A DNA stretch of 61,290 nucleotides, from NCBI GenBank assembly GCA_001938485.1, contig MQRK01255000.1:1-61290 (forward strand), in the 5' to 3' direction. Of this stretch, positions 2,231 through 61,175 are shown one piece after another. The notes under the pieces were generated by a model that searched no databases, was not told the origin of the DNA, and saw only the letters and a program-made list of their open reading frames with translations. The translations under genes and the position numbers were made by a program. Every line of letters starts with the position of its first letter. Position 1 is the stretch's first letter. Source of the stretch: Girardia tigrina (lineage: Eukaryota).

Positions 2231-2373
2231 TTGAAAGTATAGGAAGGCACCCACCCAATTATATAACAATACTTTTATCATAACGGTGCATAGATTGGAT
2301 GAGGTGGATATGTAGTGATATAACACATTATTAAGGTTACTAATCATGGAAAATATGCAGCCATATTAACAAT

Positions 2374-4107: not shown

Positions 4108-4114
4108 ATGGATT

Positions 4115-5524: not shown

Positions 5525-5933
5525 TCTTATTTCATGTCACCATATAATTTGCGTGATTTGCCTTAACCTTTTAGTTCAGACAAATAACTCGCGACCGGGG
5601 TACGATTTTGTCGAATAATTTCTAGAATTTGTAATCCACGCTTCTATTTTCTATTTGGAAACCGGTTTTCTGGAGATTAGGACATAGATATCCCTTTAGC
5701 AATTAAATATTATTTTGAATTATTTCTATTAATCAAAACACTTAATACTAAATTCATTATCCAAAGAATTGATAACTAGTTATTATTAATTATTATAGAT
5801 ATTATTATTACTAAATAGTTAGAATTTAGATAGTTTAATTATGAATTTAGAAATCCAAACAACGGGTTAAATTTTACTTTTAGGGAGTTCTTCGTATAAA
5901 TCAATTTAAAATTTTTGCTAATTCGTCAAGCTA

Positions 5934-7154: not shown

Positions 7155-8833
7155 TACTATTACATTGAAATAAACCTTCTAAATGAAATAAAATAAAGTA
7201 GAGTCAAAAGAGAGGGAAATAATCAGCTGTAAGTTTTCTGACATTAATAAAATAATAATTAAATGAGATAATAAAANNNNNNNNNNNNNNNNNNNNNNNN
7301 NNNNNNNNNNNNNNNNNNNNNNNNNNNNNNNNNNNNNNNNNNNNNNNNNNNNNNNNNNNNNNNNNNNNNNNNNNNNNNNNNNNNNNNNNNNNAAATGATA
7401 CATGTCGTCGAATATAAAATATCTCGTTGTAATATAATTAAATGGAAATAAGTAATAAATGTAAATTCTGAACATTAATTGAATGGTAAATGAGAAGTGA
7501 CGAGAACCCTTTGGAGATGGTGCAGGTCGGCCATAGAATGCATAGGGGCACGTGGTTCGATCGTCGCTTATTTCTTGAGGCTCTTCTTGTTCACGACTTG
7601 AAATGACAGCCCAAAGTTTAGAATAATGTTAGTAAAGGATAAAAGCATCGACCCCTCAGGGAGCTGAGACCACCGGTCAGGCAATACTCGCTACCGGTTT
7701 GAACCCGAAGGCGCTCCAATGCACACACAACTTGTTGATGTGCGCGGAAGAGACGCGTTTGTTCCCATAAGCAATATGAAGACAGAGAGCAATCACCGAG
7801 GGGAGTATGAAGAGATATAAGATAAGCGTGAGTTGCCGTTTAACTCAGGAAAGCGGATGGGGGCTCAGGGCCAACGAAGATGTCTTGAATCGGAGGGAAC
7901 ACGACATGATCAACAACGATCGTAAAATAATTATTAAATTGTTCTAAAGAAAATACTTATAAATCGAAATAGTAGATTGTAAAAATAAAGATAAGAATAA
8001 AATTAGACAAATTTCGTTAATTTATGAATAAATTAAAACAATAGAGAGTTGTGAAATAAGATACATTTAACGACTAATAACATTACAATTATTAGGCAAT
8101 GAAATAACTATATAATGAGAATAAAATAAAATGAAATGAATAAAAGCCGAAATTGCATGTCCAGTAAATGGTTCTAGGTCGATTCAACTAAGGTCATTTC
8201 CACTAATTACGATTTAAAATATTAATTAACCCGCTTCTAGTGTTAACTGTAGCAAAGTTTTTCTTTTTAATAAATGTTATTATTATAACTTTGTTTTGTT
8301 TTTGATAAATATTTTATGTTGTTGTTTTATTATTATTGAGTATTTTGTTGTAATGTAATTGTTTGTTTTTATTACATTAACACATATAGGGGACATATTG
8401 ATGCTTAGTAGAGATATATATTTAAGGTATATATTTTCGGGTGCAGATTGTTATCTCGAAGTACAGAACGCAACAATATGCCATTTCGTGATATGAATAT
8501 TTTATTATTTTTTATAGATAAAAAATAACATTTTAATGTAAATACACATAAGGTATCATCAATATGTACCAAGGCAAACAGAATATTTAATGGATATACT
8601 ATGCGTTTTCATCTTTAAAATGAGGAATGCATATTTTAAATGAGAATAACTCAATAAAAGTATAATAGTATGGAATAAAATATTGTAATATAGAAAATTT
8701 AGAACTGAAAAAAACATTGTATAATAATAAATAGGATTTAAAGAAATTATCAAAGTATTATTGGTAAAGAAAAGTTCAGAAATCGGTAAAAAAGAAAAAT
8801 GCAATTAGTAACTATTGTGAATTTAAATGGATA

Positions 8834-10443
8834 TTAGAAGGCATTTGCTCGAGAACTACAAGTTCCCATATTGACAACATATCGAAGGGGAGCAGAGGGA
8901 GACGATGTGGTCGAACGGAGAGGTCATATACTTTCGACTTACGTGTCAGAGCTTGCCATCATATTCAAACTAAGATGTTCCTTTTTGATTTCAAGGTCGA
9001 AAATTCGAAAACTTGATCCTGGTGTTTTCAGAATACGGTATGTCCTGTTAGTGACATATTCACTAAGTCACTCAATTTCACTAAACAGAAATCAAAAAGA
9101 TAGATAACGTAAGTCAGGGATTTCTGAACTTTCAACAGGAGGACAAATTGTTCATTTTAGGTGCAATAAGGTTGAGTAACATAAACAAATGTTTAAAAAT
9201 AACAGTGCTAAGGTAATCTCACAACCGGATTGAAATGATAATAAAATCATTTATATGAATAGGCGAATTATTTTTGAGATCTTTTCATCGCTTTGTCCTT
9301 CGATAACCGTAGCAAAACAAATGTAAGTATTGCGCCTGATTCAGTTTAATCATGTGTCTTATTACTGACATGGCTGCACCATCCACGATTCCTATGGCAC
9401 TAGCACACATCGATTGGTGTAGGTTGACAGTGGTGCAATAAATTAACAGCTTGTCAGAAAACAAATCGTAAAACAATGTTTGTTGAAAACTTAGAAAAGC
9501 CCACATCGACTGAATATTATCTTCGGGCACAGTTAATGCATTAGTTTCAAAATATTTGACACTGATACGCAAAATATTAAATATTTTCTAAATAAACAAA
9601 ACAGTGACAATCCTGATCGGTGAATGTAGGATCCAAAAATATTCCAAATCACAAATCAATTCTGAACTCGCAAACGATAGTCAATCTATCGAGACATCAA
9701 CACAGACTCAGTGCAGTCCAGATAGACAACAAGCCATTGTTTGAAACTAAAATGGTAATAAAATCACAAGTGTCAAAAAATTGAAATCGAAAAGAAATGT
9801 GCAAAAGACATAATTTAACTCAAATTAAAGAAAGATATTTTACAGAACAGTTATTATAGTTTGATCCAAACGTAAATCAACCAGTATAAGTAAGTATATA
9901 ACAATCACAACATTTACATCAGAAATTTCAACCAATACTTTAAAAAAATGAGCAAATATCGATGATCATCAAAGAGTGTTTCAGACAAACAGAAAAAACA
10001 GATAGACAGGCGGGAGACATCCCTGACATGTTAATGTGGGAGGTGGAGAATCAGTTACTGTTCATCAAGGAGTCTGGATTTGTTTATTAAAATCAATTGT
10101 AATTTGGCGTTTATTGTGATAAATTGTTTCAAAAGAATATCGAAAGAACTGATATTGTGAGAAAGCTGGAATGAACTGAGATTATTACTAACAAACTCGA
10201 TATATCTGAAACAAGTCAAATCACTTTTCAATCACAGAATTTTACAAAATTTTACTTTAGCACATTTGATCTGGATGTGGCTATTTGCTCGACATCGACA
10301 GAGAGATTCAACGCATTAAGATCAACAATATCAACTTCATCACTGTTCTCAAACTGAAGTCTATCTATTAATTTTCTTAATAATTGCAATCTGTTTTTTT
10401 CTAGCACAACGATTTTTCTAAGAGAAATAGGATGGTCTTCAAT
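8834..10443 (-). CDS. Unidentified multi-exon protein-coding gene (3' portion)
   Basis: Three consecutive phase-compatible open exons (10443-10256, 10205-10059, 10022-9939; 50- and 36-nt introns). Further candidates: an exon from 9587, one ending at 8943 (GTAAGT donor) and terminal 8855-8834. No recognisable domain. Confidence 0.5.
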
Positions 10444-10903
10444 CTGAATAATAAATCATTATTAATAAAGTTAGATAAGCTCAATCAAATGAATCAGTGT
10501 CCACCTTATCACATTATTATATATTAATCATCATACAAATATAAACATAAATACAGATTTGAATACCATCAACTCCTTAGATGCTCCAATTCACCTTCAT
10601 TAAAATCAACTGAATACATTTATTATCGGATGAGTGTTGTAAAAAAACTTTTACACTTCCATTTATATTTTACGAAAAAACGGTCAATTTATGGTCCATT
10701 TTAGAAATATGTAGCAAAATATAAAAAATAGATCTTAATTTAACTCAACATTTGTTAAAATACCTTCGACTAATATCTTAGAGACCTTTTATTACGTGTA
10801 CTGACACAGTTGTTCACCATTCCTAGTCTTAATTAGTTTACGTCAAAGAACAAATTTCTAAGTGTTGTATAAACATAGTTGTATAAATATAGTTAAAATA
10901 TAT

Positions 10904-13900
10904 CGTTGTGTCACATGATTAAGGACTTTTTGTTTAAATGCTTTAATAAATAATTCTATAACCTTGAACTTGATACGACATGGCGACGAGGACAAAGTAT
11001 TAAACTGCCTTTCCACTATTACAATTACGATTGTCCTATACCATTCATAATTCATGACTACAATTACAATTCCATTTTTATCTCTGGACTACAATTCTGC
11101 CACCAGTTGGAGCAGTTCAATTTCATCATGAAAATTCATTATGACAAGGCCGACCTGAAATCGGTGTTTTTGTCTTTCTGTGGCTCAGAGTGTTACAAAT
11201 TACTTTCAAGCTTAGTGTCACCGAAGAATTTACTGGATGCTTCATACACATTTTCATTTGAAGATGACAAGGATGTCAACAATCTCAGAGTTGTTTTGCT
11301 CAATCATCTACGTCCCAAAATTATTCTTCATCATGAGAAACAGAAGTTCTTCATGCTCAAGCAGAAATCTGTCTCTACTCAACAATTCGTTGCTCTCTTG
11401 CGACAATCAGCTGCATCGTGAAATTTTGGTGACCTTCTAGATTGTTTGCTTCTAATCCAGTTCATTAATGGGCTAAACGAGATTGTAAACGAGACTATTA
11501 TTGCAGGCAAACTTGACATTGGACGTTGCAGGACAGTCCTCATTGTTACATGAAGCATCTTCATCAATCCAATCATCTATTGATTTTGTTTGCAAGCTCG
11601 ACAGTCCGTGAACCTAAGGACAGCAAAAAATACAAAATCTGAGGATTACAAATGCTACTCTTGCCGCAAAACCAACCACGTACGAAAAGACTGCAAGTTT
11701 CGCAATGCGAAGTGCTCAACCTATGGGGCACATTGCCTCAGTGTGCAGAAGTAGCAAAAACAAGAAACTTGATAAGCATTTCAAAAGTACCAATTCCCTC
11801 ATGGTGATAAATGATGATGTGGTAGCAACTTGCGGCAATTCTGATCATGGGTTCAAGAAAACACTAAATGGCAATGGTGTTCCTATGACTTTTCTTTTAG
11901 AAACCGGCTCTCCAGTCACTGTTATTCCATGTCGTTTGTTGCCCATAACATCAACCCTACGACCATTTCCACGAGTACAATGTTACAATGGAAGCCCCTT
12001 AGACATTCTTGGTGTCACTGATGTCACTATATCACATGCTGATCAATCAATGGTTTTGGAAATATTATTAGTAAATGGTGATTTGATACTCCTGCTTGGT
12101 CGTAATGCTCTACTTCTCTTCAATTTTTTTTCTGTGGCACCAATCACAGAGGACAACAATCCAGGTAATGTCTGTGCTGAATTGGTTCTAAAGTCAGGTA
12201 TTGAGTACTCGAAATTTCCAATATTTAAACCTCGCTCACTTCCATTTTCTTTGCGAGAAAAAGTGAAAGAAAGCATCCAAGAACAAGTAAAATGTGGTAT
12301 TTTGGTTCCTGTCAGCAAAGCAATGATGACATGTCCGATTGTCCCCGTCCTAAAGGCTGATGGCTCAATTCGCATTTACGGAGATTATTCTCTCACAGCA
12401 AATACGTTTATAGATGCAGAACAATATCCTTTGCCAACCTTCGAGGACATCAAAACTTCAATGGCCAACTGCATCGTTTTCTCCAATTTGGATCTTAAAA
12501 GCGCTTACTTGCAGCTTCCTCTATCAGAAGCATCTCAATGTTACACCACCATTTCTACTCACATTGGTCACTTTAACTACACAAGACTGCCTTTCGGAAT
12601 TTCTTCTTCTCCTCGCATATTTCAGCAGTTTATTGATCGTCTAATTTGTTTCCCACGGGTTCGTAGCTCCCAAGATGACATTCTGATTGGTGGATTATCT
12701 CAAACTGATCATGACACTACTCTACAAATGGTCATGGATATTCTTGAGAAATACAAACACAAGTCAATAAAGAAAAATCAGAATTCAACAAGTCATCAGT
12801 TCCCTTTCTTGGTTATATACTTTCTGCTCATGGTGTATCTCCTGATCCTCATCGTTTGGCTCAAATCAACAAACTGCACTCACCAGTCAATAGATCTCAA
12901 CTAAAATCCATCATTGGTACTTTACAATTCTACTTACGTTTCACACCAGAAATGAGTCAAATGTTTTGTTTGCTAAGCACAAGAGTTCCTTTCAAGTGGA
13001 CACCAAAGGAGGAGGCCGCTCTTCGATCACTTATATCCAAAATAAACTTGACATCCAATCTGGTATTTTATGACATCAAAAACCGCTCTTTCACTCTGCT
13101 GAATCCTCATCCACGGGTTTGGAAGCTGTTCTGAGTCATGACAAAGAAAAGAAACAAATAATACATTGTTCATCATGCACTCTCTCCAGCTGAGAAAAAA
13201 TATGCTACCATAGAATGTGAAGCGCTGGTTATTATCTTTGGCATCAAAAGATTTTATCAGTATTTGGCAGGCAAACGATTCACAATTCTAACTGACCATG
13301 CTCCACTAAAATTTATATTTAACTCCAGAAACATTCAAGAGAGAATTTCAATGAGACTGCAAAGATGGTGTTTAATTTTGAAATTTTACGATTTTGACAT
13401 TTAATACATTCGTGGTGAAGTTTTCCTTCCAGATCTTCTCAGCCGTATTCCAGGTAGTAAAGACAGGGATGGAAGCAAGAAGTGGATGATATTTTGTTGC
13501 CCAACTGTCATTGCTGGACAAATTTCCTATTTTTAATGACTTGGAAGCTCAAACCAAATCATCTTTACTTAAAACGGTCATTCATTGGGTTCAACGCGGT
13601 TGGTCTCACAGAATTAAGAAGAAATTTATCCCATACTCATCAAACAAACACGAATATACTGTGGTAAAGGGTTGCCTACACCGAGGATACTTCATCCATC
13701 TTCACTTCATCAAGCTGTTCTTCGATTCTTTCATGAATTTCATCCAGGTATTATTCGCATGCGGCAACTCATGTGCCAGTTCGTTTGGTGGCCGGGAATG
13801 GATGGTGATATACAAAAAATAATCAGCCAGTGTGATCCATGTGTAAAGTCTCAACAATCGAGAGTAAATTACTACCTTTCTGCGTGGCTGGAGTCAAGCA

Positions 13901-14636
13901 AATTCTTCCAACGTTTGTTCATCGATTTATTCTTCTTTGATGACAAGAGTTTCCTTATCCTAATCGATCAGTTCTCTAACTTTGTAGACATTCATCCATT
14001 AAAGCAGTTATCTTCCAATCAAATCATCAGTGCTCTACAAAAGACATTCTGCTATTTTGGTCTTCCCGATATTAATGTGTGTGATAATGGAAAACAATTT
14101 GTCTCCAAGGAATTTAAATCTTACCTTTCAAGTTGCAATATTGAACTAATGTTAACTCCAACGTACTATTCACCAAGTAATGGAAAAGCTGAACGAGCAA
14201 TAAGGAGTACAAAACTATTCTTATCCAAGAATCTGGCTGAAATGGGTTCTGTGGAATTCTGTTTACAACAGTTTTGCATCGACAACAATTTCTTCCCTAG
14301 CTCAAACGGTACAATTCCTTCAACAGAATATTTGGAACAATCTCCTAAAGTCTTAATGAGGAAAACACTACTATCCAATAAACAGGGCATAACGGAAGTG
14401 GTTATTCCACAAACACAAATCGGAACGACCATAGTTCCAATATCAGGTGGTCGACTAGCTCACAATGGGACGTGTTCCATGATGAAGCCAGAAGTAGACG
14501 CGTTCATCAACCAAACTCTCGTTACTTCAATAAAAACTTTGTAAATTAATTGTGGGGGATGTTGTGTCACATGATCAAGGGCTGTTTGTTCGAATGCTTT
14601 ATTAAATAATTCTACAACCTTGAACTTGATACGACA
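10904..14636 (+). mobile_element. Gypsy LTR retrotransposon (Mag-like), full-length but degenerate
   Basis: 77-bp LTRs (10904-10980, 14560-14636; 8 mismatches); PBS TGGCGACGAGGA (tRNA-Ser GCU type); GGGGGA PPT; TATAT/GATAT flanks; gag CCHC knuckles, protease LETGS, RT LPFG/SQDD, RNase H, integrase HPG/WWPG/CDNG/SNGKAER. Confidence 0.93.
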
Positions 14637-26596: not shown

Positions 26597-29500
26597 TTTA
26601 ATTAACAGTTATAAATAAATTTAAACATTGCTTATTTTTAGATAATAAGAATTCAAATATTAATCATCCTTCTGGGTAGGAGAGACACAATCCCAAATCA
26701 ACATACAACATTCAAACACAAAACATTCCTCTCAATAATCAAATGTGTTTATTATCAAGTAGCAACGAATAATTAATTAATATTTGTTATTTTCATTTTA
26801 AAGGTTTTATTCTTTTTTGAGTTCATATGCATGCGATGTTCCTAATTTTATTTTAATTATAAATTAAGACATGTATGAATTTGATTTTAATTAACAATAT
26901 ATAATTGTATCTTATGAATATACACATATCTAACAACTAATACAATTAAGTTTTCATTTTTATATGGTTTTTCAGAACTAAGTAAAGTGTTTTATTTCAT
27001 CTTATATAGATTTCGACTAGTATGGACTCAGCACTCCTTCTATATAGATCGTATCTTTTTTGGAGTTTTTAACTATCCTTTAAGAAAGGAGTTGAATATA
27101 TTTACAACAATTGAACATCAAATTCGACGAAGTTTAGTATTGTCAGTATAAATAGGATTATGGTCAAAGTATATGATCAGGACCAAAGGAAACAGGAATA
27201 ATTATGAAATTGTTTAGGGACCCATCAAAAACTAAAAACGGAATTATTTTTGCATTATGAAAAGAACATGGTTATGAAGAAATCTAACAAAATAAACGCT
27301 TAAAATATTTTAACACAAAGGTTAAGGTCATTAAAAATTAAATACTCTAATTTGTGATTTTACAAAGTACTTCAATATCACTGAGCTAAAAAATGAATTC
27401 TTTATTCTGATCTAGCTACAAAATATTTATTTTGTATAGATAATTGATCTTTCGCAACCAAAATAGAAACATGAACAAGACAATATGATAGAAACAATAA
27501 TACAATTCCAAGATCTTTTTTAAAAAATGATTTAAAGACATTTTATGAAAATAGTACTTAATGATAAAATTGAATTTTCGCCAAATGCTATTTGTACAAG
27601 ATTAACCAACTCCTAACTTCCGAAGGTAAAAATATCAAAAGAATATTGTCTATTATATCAAAAAGTACAACTCTAAAGTGAGAAGAGAAAACCTTATAAC
27701 ATAGCCTCAATGTAGAAAAATGATGTTACAGTTATTCAAAAATAGCATATTAATTTAGTGAAAGTTAATTAATGGTTAAATTGATTTTTATGTTCACATG
27801 GAATGATGAATAAATTGATTGAAGGTTCTGATCTTGACTGATCTGACACTTGATCAATTAACATTATCAATAAGATTAATTTGTGGTATCACATAATTTT
27901 TGAATAATTCAATGAGATTCAATAAACAAACCGTACGAGAGTGAAGGATCGGTTGATGTTTAGATTGTCGGAATATTCGGGCAATAGTTGGAACAAGTAA
28001 GGCGTCATTATGGCCGGACAAACCAACCTTAGAAAGAAGCACGCTGACACAACCTTCTGTGTGAATTCAAAACTAAGATTCTCATATTTTTTTAATTTGC
28101 ACCGAATTTTACTAAAGACCGCTCGAACACGTCTGAAAAGAATTAATGTTAAATATATTTGAAATAATAATAGTGATGAGTAATAAAGATAATAATGGTA
28201 AATGAGATCATGGTACATAAATAAACTGATTAATATCATCAAGTCATTACATAAAGTGTAACAAATTGATCCAAATATCAGAGTAAATACATTAGGTTCA
28301 ATTATTAAACAGAGTTATGTTGCAATAACTGATCGACTGACACACAATCTTAATAATAATAATAATAATTGTGGTAATAAGCCTGCGTCCAGATGTGTAG
28401 AAACGTCACTGTGTCGTTGATGTCTAGCATTGTTTCATGGACTGAACATTATCAGATTGTATGGCTTCTACAGCTGAATTCGCCCCAGCAAGCGACCAAC
28501 AAAGAGGCAATAAGTACATTGGTGGCGCTAGTAACAATCGAGCAAAGTATGCATTTAGTTTCTCAAACGACCTAAATTCCGATTTTCAAGGTTTTTGTAC
28601 TGAAAATTAATTTGGCTTTAAAATAGACATTTATATTTTCTTCGTTTCCAGTTTTTTTTACTTGCTCGTTTGCATAATCTCGAGTCCTTCTATTTTCCCG
28701 TCAATTCTTTTTTACTTATAAATTTTATATTCTTATTACTTGAGCGGATATCAAATGAGAAATAAATAATTGTGAATTGTATTTTCAAAGATAGTATTGA
28801 TTCATTTTAAGAAATATTTAAAAAATTAAGAATTTCACAAACGTTATTTTGCCAATATATAATCTTACGACCGAAACATTATAAAATACTGCTACAATGA
28901 ATGTTTTGACACCAATAGCCATAGAAGCAATGATGACTTTATAATTGCTGGTTGTCGTCTAGAAGCCTAGACCTGCAAACAATCCAGTCACAGAGGAAGA
29001 TGATTAAGCTCAATAAATATATTATGGTATCAGAATGAACTCTTAAAAATTCTGAGAACAGAAATAGATTAAAATATAATGCTGGTAAAACTATCAATTT
29101 TTTGGCATTTTGCAAAACCTATTATTTTAATATAATTGTATTTTGATAAATACTGAGTTCCAAATAACTTACTTTGGAATTATTTCCAGACTGCCAAATA
29201 TTTGACTCAAAACTTTATCAACAACACTTTCAAGTTTCTGATTGCGCTTTTTGATAGCTGAAATAGAAATAGGTTCGTTTCGCTTGGCTAACTGTGACTG
29301 ATCGATCTCCAAATCTTTTGACGTGTGCATAATTTCTTTGATTGTACTCAGAAGAATTTTTTTTAAATACTAAACAAAATGTAACTGTGCTTATTGCAAT
29401 ATATGAATTACCCCGTGGCATTCCAGTTTCAGGAAACACTCGATTGACTTTGATGCCATACTGTTTCCCCGCAAAATGAGATTTATATCTATTATTAACA

Positions 29501-35500: not shown

Positions 35501-38500
35501 TCTTTATGGTTCTATGGCTTCTCTGCAAAATCCAGTTTCCTTGATTTCGATAGGCTGATGTAAAACCTTCTTTAGTTTTAAGTCTACAAGTATGAAAATG
35601 GTAGAAGTAAAGTCAAAGGTTATTGATAAGTTACCAACAAAATAATTATATCATTCATCAAAGTATGTACCGATATTATCGATATACTTGTCATTAAAAT
35701 AAAATTTGGTGGGCGAAAACGGATCTCGTTAATCAATATAAATAAATTCCTGGAAGGCGATTTTTACGGTATCTTCGGAATTGGATTTTTTCCTATCAAA
35801 AAGCTGTGATCGATGAACCAGGTTTCATGAAGTCATAATGGATTACACCTGCGGTAGACCAACAAACACTCACCATCAGCTTCTTTTGGTGAATGTTGAG
35901 CTTCGAACTATGTTTTGGTGCTTTATTCGTGTCCACCCAGCTTGCTGAACGTTTGCGATTATCATATTGGATCCAATTTTCATCTCAAGTAATGCTTCGA
36001 TTAAAACAGTTATCACATTTATAACGAGAAAGCATCACCAAACAAAAACCCAAACGTTTTTGTTTCTGCTTTTCATTCAACTCATGTGGAATCCACTTAT
36101 TCGTCCTTTTCACTTTACCAATTTGAGCCAAATGATTCAATATTGTTTGCTTTGTAACAGAAAACGTAAGCGACAAATCATGAAACCTTTTTAATGGATC
36201 CGACTCCACAGTTACCTTCAGCTCGTCATTGACTATCTGCGTTCCTGGGCCACCCTGAGACTCATTATTGAAGTTAAAATTATCTATCAAGAATTTTCTG
36301 AACCACCTTGAGACTGTCTGCAGCGTAGTATAATTGTATCCAAATACAATATTGATATTATGCATGGTTTCTGGAAATGGTGCATTCAAATCTATGATCA
36401 TTTCAACAACACATGTGGAACTTTTGGCAGCCTTGCTCTCTAATGCAGTTTGCCTCGATCCCAAATGTTGAAATTAAATTGATCACCCCTTTCTCTGGAC
36501 ACAGAGTCACCATCTGAGGCGCAGCGACGCGATTGCGCTCACTCTGCATCAGAAACCAATTATGAATTAAACAAAAGTGTCGGGCAACTAATATTTATTG
36601 TATAAATTAACTGACTGATAAATTATTTTCTTAGATTTTTAAGATTAAAATGGTAACAATTAATAAACTATTTTAGTTTAAATATAAGTTAAGATATAGT
36701 AGATGATATGTTCACTAAACGAAGATGTAAATAATCTAGAATGGATAATTAAACATTTTTGATAGATCAAATCGAGAGATAAGAGCCCTGTAGCAGTTGA
36801 TGGGACTAGCTAGCGACTGGAGTATTCACGGAGCGCCGGACAGCATTTCTGTGCACATGTCACCATTTATAATTTGTGTCATAGACCTATTGATTGTCAA
36901 TTAATTGAACAGAAACAATATTGAAGCACAACTGAACTTGATCATTCAATTGTTTATACATTATAGATTGTTGACAAATTAAGTAGCCTTCCTAATTTTA
37001 GCTAGATTTCAGAAATTCTATGTTTATTTATGAAGATTTTAAAAAGTTCATACAACTAATTCGATAATAATAATAATAATAATAACCAACTCCTTGATGC
37101 AATAATCTCGTTCAGCCTGACTGGTGCAGTTGAATACGTATGACTTGGCCTCCCGCGGGGAACCGATTGTGATAATCTAAAAATGTCAGACCGATTAAAT
37201 TTTTGAGGTTATGGAATAACGATTTACATAGTAAACAAAGTTAAGATACAATAATATGAATAAATAAATGAATAAAATCCTCACAAATCTGTAAAGTGAT
37301 TAAACAAAGGAAAAGATTTTTTAGTAGCATTCCCAGGTTAATTTGTCATTATTGTTATATTCTATAAGTCAGCAATGCTTTTTTTACAAAGGGGTAAGTC
37401 TAAAACAAAATTATAATAGTTCTTTATAGAATATTTCCTTAATTTACAGTAATGAATTTACGCGAATAACATCAATCCACCGAGCTTGATTTTGCATAAT
37501 AAATGAAAAGATATAAACAAATCGTGAAAACAAACAAATACTTTTGTAATAATAATCTTTTAAAATATTTTTTTTATTTTGCAACAACAAAATTGTGTAT
37601 ACAACTCGGTATTGGATATTATTTACATATTTTATAATCAGAGATGAAATGTTGGAATCTGATGATTGAATAAATTTATAAATATTTTCACTGGAGAAAT
37701 AAGAATGATTTTAATTTATTAGATCCTACAAGTGACACAAGTGATGATGAAATAGTTGTGGTTTAACGATGTTAATAATGAAGATCAATCTAGTAGTGGG
37801 AAAACGATGTGATATTACAGAAATGAATCGATAGGATCAATTTTTGTCACATTGTCATAGGGGAGCAAAACAGATCAGTGTACGATACCTCTTTGATCCG
37901 ACACAGGATTAATTGTGTAGAACAAGTCTGTCAATGAATAGGCAAATTAGAATGACAGCTGTTGGGATGGCTGGCACAGACCGCAGGAAAGAAAGCATTC
38001 AAAAAATTAACTATACCTCTATATACACCCATGCTCTCACCAATATTAAATACATCTGAATTACAACTTTTACAGAAGTGATAAAGTTTTTGTTAAAATA
38101 AAAGGAAATTAAGGAAATAAATATTTGTGAGAAAATAATTGCTGTAAATTATGTCAAATTAAGATGAATACATCTCAGAAACTTTTTCAAATGGATTTTT
38201 TTATAAATAATATTTGGAAAACAAACAAAAAATACTTTTGTAATAATAATCTTTTAAAATATTTTTTTATTTTGCAACAACAAAATTGTGTATACAACTC
38301 GGTATTGAATATTATTTACAAAATTATTTTGTAGTTAATAACAAATTACTGCTGGAGAAGTAAAATAACCACTGTCTTTAAAGTTCGCGTTCGCTATCAA
38401 CTCAATGTAACACGATAAAACAACAGTTCATAATTCCAGTTTACTCATCGTCATCACACGCCCCAGTGATCTCATTATCAAGCATTTCGTAATCACTGAA

Positions 38501-41500
38501 CCATCTGGGCGGACGTCGAGCCCTCAGCGGTCGGGCTGGTGAATGAATGATCTGCACCAGTGGGATCATATCCTCATCTGCTTGTTCTCCGGTCGCGGCC
38601 TCCTCTTCGTCCTCACTTCTCGAAGTCGCTTCAACAGTCTAATGTGCCGACATTGGTCGCACATGTCTCACATCAGCTACGTGTCTTGGGACTCCATCCA
38701 CTTCAACTGATGTTGCAGAGTTTACTTGCGAAACGACCCCTCGGCGCCAACGAATGGTGCATCGCGCTCCACCCGGCTTTACGTAGATTTGATCACCAGG
38801 CGCAAAATCCTTTCCGTCATGCCATCTTGCACTCGATTTCGCCAACGGTAAGCACAATTCGTACATATAAATCCTGTTACTAGGAACTGATTCGTCGCTC
38901 GTCCCGTGTTTAGGTGTTACATTGTAGTAAAACACCATATCCATCACATCACCACCGGATCTCGCCGCCATTCGCTTTATCGTGTGGTGATTCCGCTCAA
39001 CAATGCAATTTCCAGACGGTCTGTACGCGCAGCGATAAATGATGGATACGTTACACGATTTGCACAGACTTCGCAATTTATCTGCTCTGAAACACTTCCC
39101 ATTATCACACAGTAATTCGCTGGGCGGTCCCCTTTCTCTGAATAACTCCAATAATTTTACCGCCACAGATTCAGCACTCTCGTCCATCAGTCGCTTCCAA
39201 ATCACAAAGCGGCTTGGTCCGCAATCAACGCATGTGAAATTAGTCTCCCCTCCATAATGTGTTATGTCGCAACTAAGACGATGCCAATTTGTCGCTACCT
39301 CTAACTCGCCTTTTGTCCACCGCACTGCTGTCGGATCAATCGACCGACAACAGTCGCATTCGGACACGACTCTGGCTACCTCGTCTTCGTTCACTGCTCC
39401 CTACACCTTCTTAACCGCAAATACTGTCCTGTCTACTCCGAAATGGTGTAGCGAGTGGATTTCTTTAATGTCTTCGACTGATTTCGCAACGCCAGACACA
39501 GCCGTTAGTAGACATTTTTACGAGTGCTTCCACCAGTGTGCAGGAACTCTAGTCAACTCATCGTCTTTATTCTCGGTTGATGTCACTAACGATATTTTCA
39601 ACTTGACTTCACATTCTTGTATTAATTGCTCCAATAAAAACAAACGTCTTTTTACCAATGATTCGGAAAGTCTGTGCACGTGTACCCGTTTATCACCCGT
39701 GACAACAGATTTCACCCACGAACATACTGTAGCCGAATCACACAATATCTCAATTTCCTTCACATCCCATGCTAATGCCACGTTCACCCATTTCAACACT
39801 GCCTCTAATTCCGCTAAATTTATATGGTAGATATCGTCTTTTTTCTCAACCAACAATTATCCTCCACGATTGAGTGGTTTAGCTCCAAACATACCCCAAT
39901 AGCCAAACTGCTGGCGTGTTACAACACACACGACCTTTCTTTGTCTTTGGGATGTCCCACACTCCACCCACCGGGTCATGAGCGTCCAGCCACTTCGTGA
40001 TTTCATTTAAAATATTCATACTTGTCTTATCTATTTTCTCGTCCCACTTCCTCTCACTCACCATACGTTTCAAAAAACTACAGGCTGGTCTTAACCAACC
40101 TGCAATCGGGAAATGCCCGGTCACTTGCCCGCACCATGAAAAAATCTCCCTTTTCGTCGACTGCACTAACTTCTTGTCAACTCAATGTGACACGATAAAA
40201 CAACAGTTCATAATTCATATATCAAATTCATATATTATCAAAAGAGTATCAAAAAGGTTCAAAAATTGTTGGGATCTTTAAACAGATCAAAATGCATGAA
40301 TTTGTTGACTGTTGTCATATAAAAGTATACGCCTCTGTTCCGAGGAAGTGAGAATTGTTACAGTAACCGTTGAAATAGATTGGATCGAGTTATCCATTCA
40401 TTCAAAACAATATTTATTCTAAGATCAAATTTATTTAATTGGGAAAAGAAATTTTAATTATTAATTATAGAAATTAGTATTCTATAATCTGTTCAATTGC
40501 TTGTCATTTTTTAACAAAAATATTTCATTCATTTTAATTAACCTTTGTAAAAAATTGATTTGATAAAACATTATTGAATGTTTAGAAAAAAATTTAAACT
40601 AAGAGAATGTCATTTTGGTTAAAATATATGTTAATCATAGTTATAATAAATCAAGGTTCAACACTTAAATATCCCAGATTCGTAGCATCAAGACCAGTGC
40701 CGTGTCAAGTTGATAGTGTAGTCTAGCGTTCCTCAGGAGATTTTGAAATGTTTAAAAAGATAATAAACAAAATCATCGAATGGTTTATATTATTAATGAA
40801 GAATTAGATTTATCATTCAAGCAGTCAAGATCATTTCAGGTAATAGTTAAAAATTACGGATAACCATTGGTGGAAAATATCAGTTCAGGAGGATGATTCA
40901 GAACCACGAATAATCAAGATAAAATGTTCCTTGATCCAGGGTCATGTTTACAGAACGGAACCAAATCACAAATGACAAATAAAGCATACTGAAATATTTA
41001 TTCTAAACTAAGCTTAATATTTTTTTTAATATATCACAATTTTATAATAAGAAAATTTATATAACTTATAAAATAATTCGGAAAATGATAAGAATAACAT
41101 TTTGCTTCATGAAAAAATCATCAGACAAGTTATTTAAAATCATAATTAGTGGAAATTCCCCGAAGATAATCTCAAAAATGCTCATTGCCAAAATCTCGGA
41201 TTATCAAATTTTATCAGAATTAAAAACCAATAAAATCTTTTCTTGTGATACAATATTCGTTCAACAAATTATCCCATGAGACCACATGAGTTTTGGTTTA
41301 GAGATATATTTTAATCGGGGAGCTAATTTATTAAATACCGTATATACTCGCGTATTATGCAAGTTGGGTTTTTACATCCCAAAAACATGATTTTATCATT
41401 AACCCGTGTATCATGCGAGTTGGAGTTTTCGGGTGCTAAGATTGATTGACACTTAAACTTTTTAACCATTTTTAATTTTAAAAAGTTTAAAAATAAAAAG

Positions 41501-44500
41501 ATACTCTATGAATATATTTCAACTTATTTAACGGTGTTTAAATGCATTAAATTTCTTTTTTAAAGAATTTTTTATTTAAAATCAATAAAATGACGCATAT
41601 CCTTTAATTTATAACTTTATTTGAACTTTATTTTATTTTTATAATTTATATATTTTAGTTACCTTATCACAATGGTAAGAAAGTTATCCGAAAGTATTGT
41701 GCAAAATTTCAATTACAAGTTGTGACTTTTGCTGAAGAAACAAGTAATTTGCAAGCCGGAAAACATTTTGGTATTGATGAGAGCAATGTTCCCGCTAAGC
41801 TGCGCGCGTGCGTGCGCGCACCTTGTAGACTAAGAGCGCGCAGTTGTAAGATTTTTGCGCGCAGCAATAAAATACTTAGTAATTGTTAAAATTCTTTTTG
41901 AACAGTAATTAAAAAATTTTGAATTTTAATTTAATTGGATTATTTGAATAAATTTATTAGCAAATTAGACCAGTTAATTTTGTTAAATTGATATATTGAT
42001 AATTTATTCAATTTTAAATCAAAATCATTTAAATAAACAGACCATCATGTCCAACACAAAATTTGAATCGATTAGCAATGGGTCAAGGAACCGTGTATCT
42101 TTAAAATTTAAAGTTGAATGGCTTGAGGTGATCGTGATGACTCCAATCCCAACCTTTCGTGATATAAAACCAGTGAAACTCAACGAAATTTTTGACTATA
42201 TTGAAGAACAGGATGCTGTAAAATGTAAAATGTGTGCAGAAATAAAAGCGACCGGGGAATTCTCTTCTGGAAAACAATGGAGTGAGTGGAAACTGGATTA
42301 TCTCAAGTGGCATTTGATACAAAAAAAATCACCTAGAAGCTGTAGAAACAATTCGTAATCAACAAAATGGTGGAATATTTCGATTGATGCAAGAAACAGA
42401 GGAAGATCGAGAATCACGGCAAGAAACTTTCAAACGCAACCAAGCTTCAAAAGAAAAAATAAAGGTATTAATTGACAACGTTATTTTAGCCATAAAAATT
42501 AATACATCCATTAATGCCGTTCAAGGCATTAATGAACATATGTCAAAATATATTTCTTCATTACCAGAAAACTGAAAAGGAAAAAATTATGCTTTCGAAT
42601 TTATTGAATGTATTATTAATGTTCTTCAAAATCAGCAAATGAGAGAACTAAGGGCAGCAAATTATCATTGTTTTATAATAGATGAAAGCATGGACATAAC
42701 AGTTCATAAAATGTTAGTTATGTATATCAAGTATCGATTTGAGAATAAATACAAAACTATTTTTGCTGGAATTCAGGAGCTTACAACATGTGATGCTGAT
42801 TCTATTGTGGCGACAATAAAAAACTTTTTCCAAGTATATAATTTAGACCTGAATAAAATGGTAATGTAACGCCTGACGGAGCAGTGTAATGCTAGGAGTG
42901 CACCATAGCGTAGCTGCGATTTTACTCCGAAAAATAAAACACTTAGTAGTTCAACATTGTGTAGCTCATCGAAAAGATTTAGGAATAGATGACGCATGGA
43001 AAAATAACATTCAGATGAAAGAGATAAATACGTTACTGAAAACTGTTTGTACTATTTTTCATCGTTCGTCTCTAAAAAAGCAACAAATTTCAAGAATTGA
43101 CATCTGTTTTAAATTGTGATGTTTTTTCGTTCAGACCACTCAATGAAGTACGATGGCTTTCTCGTCAATTTGCAATAGCTCCTATCGTTAGAAACTATGA
43201 TGTGCTTATCCAATATTTTGAGAAATATGTAGATAAAAATAATGATCCAATCTCAAAATACTGTTTACGTGCCCTAAAAAGTGATACTAACCATTTCACC
43301 ATATTGATTTTAAACGATATTTTGAACGAACTCGGGAAACTTTGTAAGTTTCTACAAAAAGGCAAATTGTCACCAATGGAAGCCAATGAATACGTAAAGA
43401 CGGTAATTAGCAGAATGAAGATTCAATACCTTTGGGATAAAGCCTTCTGTAGCCGAGAAGCGGAAATTATTTTATCCAAACCATAAGATGAAAAAAAAAC
43501 TAGATTGTTCACACATTATTAAATTTATTAGTGATTTATGTAATCATCTGGCAAGGTGCTTTCCATCGGAAGAGATGAGAAAATGGTCTGCTTTTGATTA
43601 CAATGCGATCGCAACCAACGTAACAGATTTTACTTTTGGGCGAGCAAACGTACAAGCTCTCATTAGTAAGTATTCTGAAATTCATTATGTGAGCAACGAT
43701 GAACGAGAGGATATATTGGAAGAATACTCATCATTTAAGTTTTTAGTTGCCGAGAAACTAAAAGAAAAAAACAGCCAAAGATTTTAATAGCATGTTATCG
43801 ATCGGCTCCAGCAATGACGAGTTTACTAAAATGGCGTATGTAGTCGAAATATGCGGGACATTTCAAGCCAACAGTGCGGATTGTGAAAGAGGGTTTAGTA
43901 TTATGAATACGATTAAGTCGAAGATAAGAAACCGTCTCGAAATGTCACATCTCGACTGTTTAATGAGAATTAAATTGCAACTAAATGCTGGTATAGAAAT
44001 TGATTTAGATGCGGTTTATAACTTTTGAAGTAAGAATAAATGTCAGCATGAAGAAAATTAAATTTCAAATATTTAAAATGAAAATTTTCTGTCTTTTATA
44101 TTTAAAATAAATTAAATTTTTATATAATTATGAACTATGCGCTCAGTTTTTTTTATCTACAAAAAGCATTGCGCACAAGTTTTTTTGAGCGCAGCTGAAA
44201 AAAAAATTAGAGGGTGAGAGTAATATCCGAAATTGGTGAAAGCAAAAAGAAAAATTAGAGAAGATGCCTTCATACAAATGTGCTAATAGAGGTTCAAATT
44301 GTACGTGGTCACATATAGAAAATAAAGTGGCTATATCATAACAAGAAATGCAATAAGACTTTTTGCCATTAAGTTAGCTCGCAGTGAAGGAATTTCAGAA
44401 TTCATCGCTTCGCCAGGTTGGTGTACACGTTTTATGAATAGGTGCAACTTAGTCCTTAGACGAAAAACAAAGATAGCACAAAAATTGCCCAAAGACTTAA

Positions 44501-47500
44501 ATGAGAAAGTGTTTGCATTTCATAAGTACGTAATTAATTGCTTGAAAGAAAATATGTATGATTAAGCAAACATCGGCAACATGGATGAGACTCCAGTTTG
44601 GTTCGATATGCCTTCCAATTTTACTGTCAACAAATGTGGTGAGAAGACAGTATTTGTTAGGATAACAGGGCATGAAAAGACACACTTTACAGTGGTTTTA
44701 AGTTGCTTAGCAAATGGTAAAAAATTAAATCCAATAGTGATTTTCAAGCGAAAGTTAATGTCAAAGGAAGACTTTCCTAAAGGAATTATTGTTCATGTGA
44801 ATCCAAAGGGATGGATGGACGAAGAAGGGTGCAAGATTTGGCTTCACAAAGTTTGGCAGCAAAGACTGGAAGGTTTACAAAATACGAAGAGCTTGTTAGT
44901 TTGGGATATGTTCCGTTCCCATCAAGTAAAAGGTGTTAAAAAATGCGTGCACGAGTCCAACACAGATCTAGTAGTTATTCCAGGTGGCCTAACGAGTATT
45001 CTACAACTTCTTGATGTGTCATTAAATAGGTCATTCAAAGACAAAATGCGTGATAAATGGAGCACATGGATGCTAGACGGTGAAAAAACGTTTACTAAAG
45101 GAGGGATCAACTGTGCGGCCAGTGGGCATACTTCTACGTAGTATCCCTGAGTAACTAGAGATCTCGGTCTCTAGGCTAAAGTGTCCAAGTGCTAGCCTTT
45201 CATTGCGGAACAGCCGGCAATAGATCGTATTCAGGAATGGGCCAGCAATCCATTCACTAGGCTACGCTTTACAATTTGGGTGTGAAGGCTGTGGGGAGTA
45301 GTGACCCCGCTGTCGATGGTTGGATTGCATCTTAATGATCTTGGATGAATCAATCCCGGTGAAGGGTGTCGTAATGACGTCTTTGCATCTGCGGACAGGC
45401 GGAACAAAGGCATGGATCCCAACATTGGGGGAGTGCCCGTTGAGAACCATCAGCGTCCCAGACCTCCTATAAAGCCTCAGGCTTAATACCGGAAAGGAGT
45501 AGAGGTGCACTAAAGGAGGACTTATGAAAGCTCCAACACTATCAAAACTTTGTACGTGGGTGAAAGAATCTTGGGATGCGATTGATGAAAAACGTGTAAT
45601 TAAAGCATTCAAGAAATGTGGAATTTCTAATTCTCTAGATGGTACATAAGATGATCTTTTATATCAGAGTTCCGAGAGTTCCGAGAGTGATAGAAGCAGA
45701 GTAGAAGATAATGTTTATGATGACGTAATTAATTCTGAAGAATTCAGGGACTTATTTTCAAGTTTAGGAATTGATACTGAAGATTGTGTTGATTAGATTT
45801 TCAATTTAATAAATGGTTTTACAACAATGAAGTTTATTTGATGAACTTTTCACAAAAAAATTTTTCTGTATCTCGTGTATAATGCGACCGCAAATTTTTG
45901 ATGTAAAAAATGAAGAAAAATTGTCGCACGATACGCGAGTATATACTATAAGTATATATATTATTATTTTTTTCTCAATAACTTTGGCTCGATAATAAAA
46001 AATTGAATTAATATTCATTATAATAAAATCGATAGTTAAAATAAGTACAGAAAATAATTTATGAAAGTACTATTTGTGATTTTATTTACTGATTTACCTT
46101 AGTCTTATCAAAATAATTTAAAAACTTTGGATAAAAAAATCAAACCAAACATGACCCGTTTTAAGAATATTAATACTCTCCAAATATATTAATTTATTTG
46201 TAACATTTTATTTATACATCGGACATTTTCATTATAAAATGCCGTATTTCAACAAAATAGACGATTATATAGAAATATAAATTTAATTTTAAGAGAAAAT
46301 CGATTTTCGTTTTTTTTGACAAAAGATATAATTAAAATGATCAAATATTAACGGAAAATTAAAAAATAAACAAATTTTAACATTGAAAACAGAATCAATA
46401 ATTTTAACATTAAATTTTCAGTTATAATTTCTTGAAGTATTTGAAAATTGTCAAATATTAATACTGAAGTAAATATTATTTTTAAGAATTAAATCTAAAT
46501 AATTTATTAAATATTGAAAAAAATAGAAAGTTTTTTTTAATAAAATCAAAACAATAGACACCAAATCAATTTATATGAAGATAATCTACACAAACGAGTG
46601 TCCAACACACGGCTAAAGTCTAATTGTTTCTATTGATTAATACTATCAAACCATTGGGTATCCATAACCAAATTTACCCAAATTTTTTTTCTGCTATTTT
46701 TTAACAATATTTTTTAAATATTTAATAAATTGAAAATTTAAATATTTCAGTTGAAATTTTAATGATAAAAAATTAATTCTGTTAAATTAAGAGTTATTTT
46801 TAATTATTTTCCGTTAATATTTGATAATTTTAATTATATTTTTTTCAAAAAAAAGAAAACGAAAATCAATTTACTCTTCTTAAAATTAAATTAATATATT
46901 TTGAAAATAAAGAAGAATGTTTTTAGAAAAATATGTATCGTAATAATTTAATAAATCTTTTAAAAATTATAAAAAAAATATTAGAAATAAATTTCTAATA
47001 AATCCCAGATCATAAAGACATTTTAACAACTTAAATGAAGATAATGTACAAAAGCGAATATCCAACAGTTTCCATTGATTTAAACTTTTGGGGACTCAAC
47101 AAAATATCCTAAATTAATTTTAAGAAAGGAAAATTGATTTTCATTTATTTTTGACAAAAAAATATACCCTAATTTCTTGTGTATAACCCGCGGGTTATAC
47201 GAGAAAAAAAGTAAGTTTTCCCGAAAATTCGAGGATGTGGGTTATACTTTTCATATAAATTTTTGATATTTTTATTGTGCGGGTTATACATTGGTGCGGG
47301 TTATATGCAAGAAATTAGGGTAATTAAAATAATCAAATATTAACGAAAAATTAAAAAAATTTTTTCAAAATTAAATCTAAATAATTTAATGAATACTTCA
47401 AAAAATCATTAAAAAATTTTTTTAATAAAGCCGAAACCAAAAAACAACAAAACCCCAGTCAAATTGTATCCATTGACAGACACTCTCAAGCCTATGGGAA

Positions 47501-49514: not shown

Positions 49515-50567
49515 GTCTTGCGGTTCATTCCTGTTTTTTGGTGGCAACTTCTCTGTTCAGATTGATTAATTGCTCTCTATAATGAACCGCCGTAACAGTT
49601 TCGTCAGGTTTCAGAAGTTCATAATACAAAATACCCTTCTATCCCACCATATGCAGAGGAGCACATTTTTTCCATGATGTTATGCTTGGCACCTTTCATG
49701 GGTCTGTAGATAATCTCTTTCGTTTTGGATTATCGAAATAAATGTACTTTTCATCACCAGTGATAATTCGATGCATGAATGACTTGCGTTGCTGCCGATC
49801 AAGTAAAAGTTCGCTCGTTGTTCTTCAATTTTCTTGCTGGCGTTCAGTCAATTCATGCGGCAACCATCGTCCTTCTTTCTGAATCTTGCCATGTCATGCA
49901 AGCGATTTGAAATTGTTTTCTGAGTCACACCTAACGCGATAGCTAATTTTTTGTACGTTTGGGCATCATCTTCATCAAGTAAGGCTTGCAGTTCATTGTC
50001 TTCAAACTGCTTTGTTGATCTATCGCGGTCTTTGTTGCTCAGATCACAATCACCTTCTCTGAACCACTTAAACCATTTCTGACAGGCTCTGACAGTGATT
50101 GTATCTTCACCATATACTTCAGCAATCATTTTTTGAGAATCGATGGAACTTTTCCTCGAGTTAAACATGAATAAAAGAACTTCCTGTAATTTCTCTTTTG
50201 TTGGAGCTTGGGTGGTCATATATAAAATTACAATAAAATTTTATATGCTAATTTTTTTTTAAAAATTCAAAAAGTATTAGATAGCGATTAACCCATTAAT
50301 GTCGAGAATTATGTAATATGAATTTTTCATAATTTTCCATAATTTTCATAACTTTTCATAATGTGTTCCGTATGTGTTCTGAACCTTCAGAGTACACACC
50401 TTATCAACGAAACATAGCTAAATGCAATGTCTTTACTTTTACAGCCATTTTTATTAGCTGGGCACGAATGTTCCCGTTCGGTGTTAATGGGTTAAAACAC
50501 TCTACATAATAGATACAAACAAAAATTTCAGACAAAATGAAACGAACTTTCATACTTGTACACCTAA
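49515..50567 (-). mobile_element. mariner (Mos1-like) transposon, 3'-truncated
   Basis: TA plus TTAGGTGTACAAGTATGAAA TIR at 50567; ORF 50219-49848 (EVYGE, CQKWFKWFREGD, ELQALLDEDDAQT), WLPHEL, HRIITGDEK, LCIWWD. Confidence 0.88.
50292..50491. mobile_element. TTAA-specific (piggyBac-like) MITE nested in the mariner 5' UTR
   Basis: TTAA on both sides; CCCATTAA termini. Confidence 0.78.
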
Positions 50568-59136: not shown

Positions 59137-59962
59137 TTGGGTTGAGGAATAATTCGTGAGCGTTTTTTCAAGTTAAAAAAATATATTCATAAATGAAACG
59201 CTTTTCCAAAATATTTTGTGTCATTTGGTCATCATTTTGGTCATTTTTTGCTCTAATAGATGGTGTGCTTGATTTTCATATTTCTTTAATTTTGCTTTCA
59301 TTTTCAGCTCATTAAATGGAATGTCAAGTGGACAAAATCGAGCATTTTCGACACAATCTGCTTTTCGCATTTAATCGAGGTGTTAACGCCGCCAAAGCTG
59401 CTTGTGAGATCTGTTCTGTGTATGTCAATGGAGCAATACCTGAAAGTACCACCCGCCGTTGGTTTTCGCGTTTAAAAATGGGAATTTTGATCTGAAGGAC
59501 GGACGACACACTGGTCGACCAACTGTGTTTAATGAAGAGCAATTGAATCAGCTTCTTCACGAAAATCCACGTCAAACGATTAGAGAATTAGTGGAGCAGA
59601 TGGATTGTGATCAAAAAGCTGTGGTGAACCACCTTCATTCAATGGGCAAGGTTCAGAAACTCGGCGCTTGGGTGCCACACTTTTTGTGCGAAAAGAATAG
59701 AAATCAGTGCATCACAATTGCCGCCAGTTTGCTTGCTCGACATCGCTCAACACATGGTCACAAGGAGCGCTTTCTTAACCGCATCGTCACTGGCGATGAA
59801 AAATGGTGCCTGCACATTTAATATGAAGCAGCGTAAAGAATGGCTCAGCCCCGACAAAAAAGCGACTCCTCGAGCAAAACAAAACCTCCATTCTCGAAAG
59901 ACTATGTTGTGTGTATGGTGGGACTCGGAAGGGATGGAGGTTTTGTTTATTCCTCAACCCAA
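59137..59962 (+). mobile_element. mariner deletion derivative
   Basis: TA-flanked TIRs TTGGGTTGAGGAATAA; WVPHFL, RIVTGDEKWC, MLCVWWD; 3' half deleted. Confidence 0.9.
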
Positions 59963-60039
59963 TAGATGAATCCTAGTTTAATCAACATACGGCAAATCTT
60001 AGGATCGCCCCGGGCGCCAATAACAGTTGCTAATCAAAT

Positions 60040-60243
60040 GCTTACAGCCCAGAACTAAATCCGATAGAAGATTTTTTTCTATGATAAAATTCCGGTATCA
60101 TGCTATTAGATTAAGTCAGCCCGAGAATAATATCGTAGATGCAATCGACCAAGTTTTAATGTCGAGGATTTTTCTACTGAATGTGCTGGTTTCTATCGTA
60201 ACATGAGACGTTGGGTTGAGTTAGCACGCCAAAAACAACAATT
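60040..60243 (+). mobile_element. IS630/Tc1-like DDE transposase C-terminal fragment
   Basis: YSPELNPIEDFFSMIK translated from about 60042. Confidence 0.65.
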
Positions 60244-60245
60244 TA

Positions 60246-61175
60246 CTTAGGCTGTCTAATAAGTTTCCGGAATATGTCATGCACACACACATGCATACAT
60301 GTACACACGTAAATATTGTATTAGAATGAAGCCACCAATCAGCTGCTTTGGCCAATCATAGAGTCACATACTTATCTGCTCTCTTCTCATTGTGACAGGT
60401 GCACCGTTGACACGTTATGGATTTACAGAAAGAACATTTTCGTGCATACATCTACTTAGAAATGCTACGGGGACGTAAACCATGTGAAATATATAAGCAG
60501 CTGCAAGATACTAATCTGAATGTTCCTTCACAGACAACTGTATTCGAGTGGTACAAACAATTTAAAGAGGGAAGACAATCCCTTGTTGATTATCCAAGAT
60601 GCGGCCGCCCAACCAAATCTTCAACCGCTGAAAATGTGCAGATTATCAAAGCGATTGTGGATGAAGAACCAAGGACATCTCTTAGAGCAGTGAGTGAATC
60701 GATTGGCCTGTCTAAAGATACTGTTAGACAGATTTTCACAAATCAGCTTGAATTGCGAAAGATTTGTTCGACATGGATTCCACATCACCTCTCCGAAGCA
60801 AACAAACGGGACAGGATTTTGTGTGCACAAAGTATCATCGCCTTATTTGAAAACCATTCCATCGATTATCTGTTACACCATTGGACGACAGAGGATGAGA
60901 GTTGGTTTCTGTATGAAACAGCAGAATCAGGTATGGCGTCATCGAGGACAACCAAAACTCACTGTTGTCTGCCCGAAGCTTACAAACAAGAAAACTCTTC
61001 TCTTGCTGGCATTCACTGGTGACCAAAAGATAAGTACTAACATTTGACATTACTGGAGAGACTGTGAACTCAGAGCGTTATATGGAATTTGTTCGTTCAA
61101 CTGGGGAAAAATGGCGACATGTTCGCAGATATCCCAAAAAGCTCACGGAATTGTTGTGGCAACACGATAACGCAT
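60246..61175 (+). mobile_element. mariner transposon, 3'-truncated
   Basis: ORF 60417-61022 (TVFEWYKQFKEGR, PRCGRP, TWIPHHL, TEDESWF), then WQHDNA near 61160 and an abrupt end. Confidence 0.85.

Follow-up and report, generated by a model that had tools for sequence, protein, structure and literature searches.

In the genome of Girardia tigrina, a non-coding element of 408 bp, present in hundreds of copies, begins with an HDV-like ribozyme fold. Here, we describe this element starting from one copy on contig MQRK01255000.1, of which a stretch of 61,290 nt (the window) was analysed. The sequences suggest that the element is likely the non-autonomous partner of an RTE-type LINE family, and the commonest insertion site lies in the endonuclease gene of a Penelope-like element. 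Ribozyme-headed non-autonomous elements are a known kind; the Penelope targeting is the new part, within the literature searched. That search returned no report of an RTE element or satellite that targets Penelope; subscription journals, Repbase and Dfam lie outside it, and Repbase entries may already describe the families. The original prediction for this DNA concerned the ribozyme fold and had no mention of the target motif or the Penelope hot spot, which were found here.

The element and its ribozyme fold

The window copy occupies 45101..45508 on the plus strand. Its boundaries are defined by genome copies and by an 11-bp target site duplication (TSD), present at 45094..45104 and repeated at 45509..45519; the 5' TSD is also seen in empty sites. 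The last three bases of the 5' TSD form a microhomology with the element's 5' end, and this AGG puts the 5' junction of the window copy at 45102-45105. The element is GC-rich and splits a pogo-type DDE transposase remnant on the same strand (44326..45650; Pfam DDE_1 match at 44566-45102, E 6e-25). Six of nine other pogo loci fetched have the empty site, the remaining three being unmatched by the anchor, and in the natural empty copies the pogo frame reads through the insertion junction. The empty joint 45093-45509, with 11 shared letters, is also present in one contig of the public run X7. All 17 public runs consist of contigs. In those of run X2, the depth is 3058-12680 over the element against about 30-290 over the pogo flanks; that the run is RNA is a guess, and neither expression level nor transcript ends can be read from contigs.

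Genome-wide, exact patterns counted 269 ribozyme cores and 184 element 3' ends, with no hit for the reversed controls, and a genome search gave at least 43 element matches (40 scored of 2273 candidates). The copies are about 408-424 bp long, non-coding and without poly-A. Automatic assignment gave a TSD of 11 bp in 25 of 52 cases and of 12-13 bp in 17 of 52. The fold does form the 5' terminus of a small mobile element that is non-coding, as had been proposed. The 3' terminal segment (45471..45508, plus strand) is built from a hairpin, an AATAC linker and a second hairpin; it resembles the LINE 3' end and is likely the recognition signal for the reverse transcriptase (RT). A further hairpin with a GCYAGCAA loop (45235..45255, plus strand) is common to the LINE 5' UTRs, with stems that differ while their pairing is kept.

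The HDV-like fold spans 45101..45187 on the plus strand and is supported by descriptor, covariation and family alignment. The nested double pseudoknot is complete and in order, with every helix that the original prediction had listed in its stated place. Its parts are P1 (45101-07/45143-49), J1/2 with a 3-bp hairpin (45111-13/45120-22), P2 (45123-29/4518x-87), P3 (45130-32/45140-42) with the L3 sequence UCUACGU, P1.1 (C45134-G45151 and U45135-A45150) and P4 (45155-62/45167-74), followed by G45175-C45176-UAA. The cytosine at 45176 holds the catalytic position, equivalent to C75, and is kept in related copies. A strict descriptor matched once on the plus strand of the window and not on its minus strand, nor in any of 3000 dinucleotide shuffles of the element; a looser one added a single AT-rich match on the minus strand. 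Rfam, including the HDV-clan models at gathering score, had no match on the element, and the window region gave one unrelated chance match; the proposed likeness to the drz-Agam type found no support there. The minimum free energy of the whole element has a z-score of -0.74, which is uninformative because the fold is a pseudoknot.

The family begins with C at 28 of the 30 places sampled by contig order, and this C1 pairs with the base equal to G45149 (G37). The two G starts are microhomologies with the target duplication, as in the window copy. Since G45101 lies inside the TSD and the family begins with C1, the window copy has lost its first base. Hence the +1 pair, which is C1-G37 in the family and G1-U in the LINEs, reads G-G in the window copy as a result of the loss of C1 at the 5' junction. 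The original prediction had let the cut 5' of G45101 coincide with the insertion boundary. This stands in so far as the predicted cut is the 5' boundary of the family, while the +1 base is C and G45101 is target DNA. The suspicion that the G-G mismatch impairs this copy fared similarly: the ribozyme of the window copy is probably weak or dead, impaired at pair 1, with a mismatch that reflects the lost C1 and a G supplied by the target. This reading follows the trypanosome ribozymes, in which C at +1 is active (L1Tc/NARTc, in the excerpt of PMC3185411) and a C1-A39 mismatch at pair 1 went with very low activity (in the excerpt of PMC4035085). From the family sequence we predict that the element RNA self-cleaves 5' of C1. 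The base equal to G45181 is a gap in 5 of 31 aligned rows and A in one, and the adjoining U-A pair equal to U45129-A45180 is present in 31 of 31. Because the base is absent from some related copies while this pair is invariant, G45181 is more likely a bulge, with C-UAA as J4/2.

The window holds further remains of transposons (11618-14544 +, 38642-40181 -, 35799-36473 -, 49851-50240 -, 59628-61019 + and 1455-1910 +), which comprise RT and integrase pieces, integrase/RNase H/DUF7047, and mariner-type and piggyBac-type transposases. Broken ORF pieces at 41987-44028 on the plus strand have no Pfam match and carry what we take to be motifs of hAT transposases. The fold had been described as antisense to a RasGAP pre-mRNA. 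RasGAP exons, whose closest solved structure is SynGAP, were found only at 27922-28314 and 29172-29369 on the minus strand; none lies beyond the element in the 44+97 frames scanned, and a homolog search found nothing further, with no exon past 29.4 kb.

Pairing across related families

Two further short families were located adjoining element copies, and covariation was analysed in 31 natural copies from three related short families. In this set, 98.3% of the cells that should pair do so, compared with 94.8 +/- 0.3% in shuffles. Cells changed on both sides number 41 against 14.2 in shuffles, a value that 0 of 500 shuffles reach, although relatedness inflates such cell counts. Counted by pairs, six show change on both sides against 4.5 in shuffles (62/500), which is not significant, and few lineages stand behind the counts. 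In the young family of the element alone, 98% of the cells pair and covariation is not above shuffles (one pair double-changed, 220/500). As judged from these alignments, compensatory change keeps the pairing across subfamilies and is undetectable inside the young family alone. The covariation that the original prediction had named as a check is therefore seen across three families, at the level of cells, and not within the young one.

The second P1.1 pair of the usual CC/GG type had been read as replaced by a compensatory variant in the window copy, and this is borne out by other loci. In a search pattern that left position 3 of L3 free (C/T) and did not include the base after P1, all 12 loci with U at this position have A after P1 and all 13 with C have G, so that all 25 co-vary; the set contains a few duplicates, and the two states are lineages. 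This co-change fixes P1 at 7 bp with C1-G37. In 5 of 31 rows the remaining P1.1 pair does not form. The pairing of P1 to P4, also named as a check, is kept in the other copies, and the cytosine at the catalytic position is present in 122 of 129 distinct copies from the element and LINE families, retrieved with anchors that exclude that base. P4 varies in length with a constant base. Of the 80 ribozyme sites one has a shared variant, compared with 31 of the 321 sites elsewhere (Fisher p 0.01; 28 copies after two near-duplicates were dropped).

Several side lineages were seen. A second short family (L205-L229 in our numbering of loci, e.g. L208:1500-1810 +) is about 300 bp long, starts with G and has an apparently 6-bp P1 (G1-U) and a CC/GG P1.1; its 3' end is another one, its target motif is the same, and at least 40 matches were found (40 scored of 1109 candidates). 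Sister subfamilies that are older than the element (L230-L254) gave 218 exact pattern matches and show a mosaic-like mix of ribozyme, P4 and body modules. In copies of subfamily B (e.g. L163:1121-1214) the P4 loop reads as a perfect tRNA B-box-like GGTTCGATTCC, which is lacking in 80 of 97 parsed copies.

The partner LINE

The suggested link to RTE elements is supported by LINEs that adjoin several element copies and carry homologous ribozymes. They encode one ORF with an N-terminal apurinic endonuclease (APE) domain, an RT and C2H2 fingers, and the two whole proteins have 1145 and 1169 aa. Homologs elsewhere are mostly APE+RT proteins of 900-1250 aa with 32-41% identity. RNase H had no match in the LINE ORF, an ORF1 is absent and the 5' UTR is short. 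The single ORF with N-terminal APE and RT is an RTE-type layout. We take the layout together with the RT motifs to fit the RTE clade, and PF20049, present on some of the homologs, is presumably linked to RTE. By domain layout and RT motifs, the partner is likely an RTE-like LINE.

Two LINE subfamilies open with an HDV-like fold, with the G1-U pair exactly at the LINE boundary and a CC/GG P1.1. Rfam HDV matches at the LINE 5' ends are weak (32.8 and 28 bits, below the gathering cut-offs of 50 and 44). The ribozymes of element and LINE have the L3/P3 core and the base of P4 in common, and one LINE subfamily has a P4 close to that of element subfamily B. The GCYAGCAA-loop hairpin, seen at L002, L076, L080, L095, L240 and L242, occurs in the element and in LINE 5' UTRs, and the last 40 bases are similar between element and LINE, both of which are tail-less; exact matches to the LINE 3' end number 961 genome-wide. 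The element thus has the make-up of a bipartite element, with ends homologous to the LINE 5' and 3' ends, no ORF and TSDs. Among 20 RT loci, 30 APE loci and 30 5'-UTR loci there was no LINE with a C1-type ribozyme or with the middle part of the element, and blastn of the element matched no LINE UTR. The lack of a C1-type LINE in these loci points to a long-separated satellite lineage rather than a fresh internal deletion.

Some LINE ends have unusual neighbours. Upstream of the APE match, one LINE 5' end (L077) is joined to what we take to be 28S rRNA from the R2 site region, and another (L072) follows a presumably tRNA-like fragment; these joints are possible template jumps. The same non-Penelope sequence lies 3' of several LINE ends (L259, L261, L278, L106), possibly as a second repeated target or because the loci are duplicated.

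Ribozyme-headed bipartite non-autonomous RTE elements have been described before, according to passages in PMC5786205 and PMC6765202. Like RTESINE1/2, WALLSI3 and MAR4_MD in the excerpt of Kojima 2018 (PMC5786205), the element is non-coding, has LINE 5' and 3' ends, would depend on an RTE-type LINE and has the 5' ribozyme expected there. Unlike the RTESINE1/2 type, its ribozyme has C1-G and CU/AG where its LINEs have G1-U and CC/GG, its middle part is without a LINE match and it has no tail. It also has a strong site preference, whereas the excerpt of PMC5786205 reports none for RTE. There are parallels to L1Tc/NARTc and ingi/RIME as well: in the excerpts of PMC3185411, PMC4035085 and PMC5814959 these pair an APE LINE with a short partner and have an HDV-like ribozyme whose cut lies at +1, where the base is C, and a P1.1 of 1-2 bp; in our case the cut is predicted. 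Also shared are an upstream target motif with relative site specificity and tandem arrays, described for L1Tc/NARTc in the excerpt of PMC5814959, and C-terminal C2H2 fingers. However, our system has no RNase H match and no poly-A, resides in an animal genome and favours the endonuclease gene of another retrotransposon.

Target motif, Penelope hot spot and proposed cycle

Element and LINEs share the target GTG-N10-T|AC and a duplication of 11-13 bp. The three short families provide 33 sites that are neither in Penelope nor in tandem, and 19 of them have GTG at -14..-12, against a background of 1.0%; T|A is found at the nick in 29 and A at +1 in all 33. At the window insertion the motif covers 45079..45095 on the plus strand, where GGTG occupies -15..-12 and the nick falls in T|AC; by its sequence context, the window copy has landed off target, in a motif-bearing pogo transposase.

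Insertions are most frequent at one codon of a GIY-YIG domain, that for Tyr in the YIG motif, and the GTG of the target overlaps the codon for the second cysteine of the CxxC in the same endonuclease. The host of this site has an RT followed by a C-terminal GIY-YIG domain, as Penelope-like elements do. This one site of a multicopy sequence holds 17 of the 30 element copies sampled and 10 of the 30 LINE 3' ends (by a pattern that required AC at the junction), alongside many off-target copies; both samples consist of the 30 loci that come first in contig numbering, which favours small contigs and includes duplicates. The Penelope inserts are all in sense orientation. An exact 23-mer of the site occurs 1495 times, 683 of these continuing as exact empty sites. 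Among the first 30 sites, 14 are empty, six carry the element, six a 5'-truncated LINE and three some other sequence, with one uninformative. Element or LINE thus occupies 12 of 30, often in tandem, in either order and with the duplication between them.

Whether this accumulation amounts to targeting can be doubted. Insert-bearing Penelope copies might have been amplified with the insert as a hitchhiker, or the site might simply suit a nuclease of loose preference well and be abundant. We consider this rather unlikely. The Penelope site does score 14.5 bits on a matrix built from 30 off-target sites (four doubtful assignments dropped, one added) and has at least 1495 exact copies. A matrix from so few sites can also understate specificity, and T is preferred at -2 of the off-target sites, a position at which the main Penelope family carries G. 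Yet for 1495-6000 sites this matrix predicts a Penelope share of 1-5%, against 33-57% observed. Distances of element and flank correlate among 11 copies, as hitchhiking would have it (Mantel rho 0.53, p 0.03), but with one outlier left out the correlation is 0.23 (p 0.19), and after correction for the divergence of each copy it is about zero, at the low power of n=11. Two observations speak further against this reading. The six LINE inserts in the 30-site sample have six different 5' truncation points, as judged by eye, and several subfamilies and two LINE lineages have entered the same codon in diverged Penelope families.

Taken together, we regard it as quite probable that this ribozyme-headed element is non-autonomous and has an RTE-type LINE as its partner; by prediction, its RNA cuts itself 5' of C1 and is thereby freed from read-through transcripts. 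Read-through RNA, often driven by Penelope, would be cut by the ribozyme 5' of C1; Penelope is suggested as a frequent source of transcripts because all inserts there are in sense. The LINE protein would bind the common 3' hairpins, nick the bottom strand at T|AC and prime reverse transcription, which would run off the ribozyme-made 5' end. The 5' junctions show an extra T, microhomology or short repeats, and these features fit such a run-off; the same pattern is described for self-cut R2 in the excerpt of PMC3774820. The R2 SIDEs treated there are likewise ribozyme-trimmed non-autonomous elements from a co-transcript, as predicted here, with variable 5' junctions, microhomology and non-templated bases. 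In contrast, R2 uses a restriction-like nuclease and the 28S rDNA, while we find an APE, 11-bp duplications and many off-target sites.

The 5' end might instead be set by an internal promoter, Pr77-like or for Pol III, with the fold kept for RNA stability or protein binding. The first 77 nt of L1Tc are promoter and ribozyme at once in the excerpt of PMC3185411, and one P4 variant has the perfect B-box-like GTTCGANNC in 17 of 97 parsed copies. The B box is missing from the other 80, the subfamily of the window copy included, and a T4+ run in P4 of three copies would stop Pol III. A tRNA, 5S or 7SL head with A and B boxes, as in Pol III SINEs, was not found on the element. The catalytic-position cytosine and P1.1 are kept or compensated, and the boundary of every family coincides with its predicted cut. 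We therefore hold the promoter reading to be improbable. That the element is a Penelope satellite, moved by the RT and GIY-YIG nuclease of Penelope, is very improbable despite its close physical link to Penelope copies, given that it agrees with the APE LINEs in its ends, ribozyme, duplication length and target motif, that it is without the hammerhead-bearing Penelope terminal repeat, and that 13 of 30 copies are inserted elsewhere than in Penelope, between clean duplications.

Within the preferred reading of a self-cleaving LINE partner, the Penelope-resident copies would be transcribed from the Penelope promoter. In 10 of 22 loci, the Penelope target site has a minimal hammerhead core some 400 bp downstream of it; the core was seen at L021, L024, L095, L104, L107, L153, L245, L277 and L279. 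The RNA could therefore end there with Penelope sequence available for pairing: its 3' end would lie at the Penelope hammerhead, and the leftover Penelope sequence could pair with another Penelope site once this is nicked. Off-target sites have no likeness to the Penelope duplication beyond +1 and +2, so that this annealing step finds no support in them. Tentatively, and at somewhat less than an even chance, we propose that the RTE-type LINE and its ribozyme-capped satellites are homing parasites of Penelope. Their nuclease would read the codons for the conserved Cys (CxxC) and Tyr (YIG), insertion would disable the endonuclease, Penelope transcription would be borrowed, the HDV-like ribozyme would trim the 5' end and the hammerhead the 3' end, and leftover Penelope RNA would reinforce the targeting.

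Concentration of an APE element at one site of a multicopy sequence, with tandem stacking, is also found in R1 and Tx1. Tx1 targets a DNA transposon. Our LINE differs from both in its single-ORF RTE-like layout, its partial specificity (33-57%) and its target, a Penelope coding motif. R1 and Tx1 are the only target-specific APE clades named in the introduction of PMC4640811, and RTE-like elements are absent from those named there. The P1.1 swap, C1-G versus G1-U and the variable P4 form a natural series with unusually clean covariation, suited to finding out which +1 pairs permit cutting. What is unexpected is the target: about 40% of the sampled copies of one Penelope site are filled, with the endonuclease motif broken. 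If the homing proposal is true, a third APE lineage would have target specificity, and a three-level chain of parasites would use two classes of ribozymes. If real, this would also be a compact APE retrotransposon with a defined spaced motif, which bears on the evolution of site specificity and on tools for RNA-templated insertion, and in Girardia tigrina it would mean that one transposon family suppresses another.
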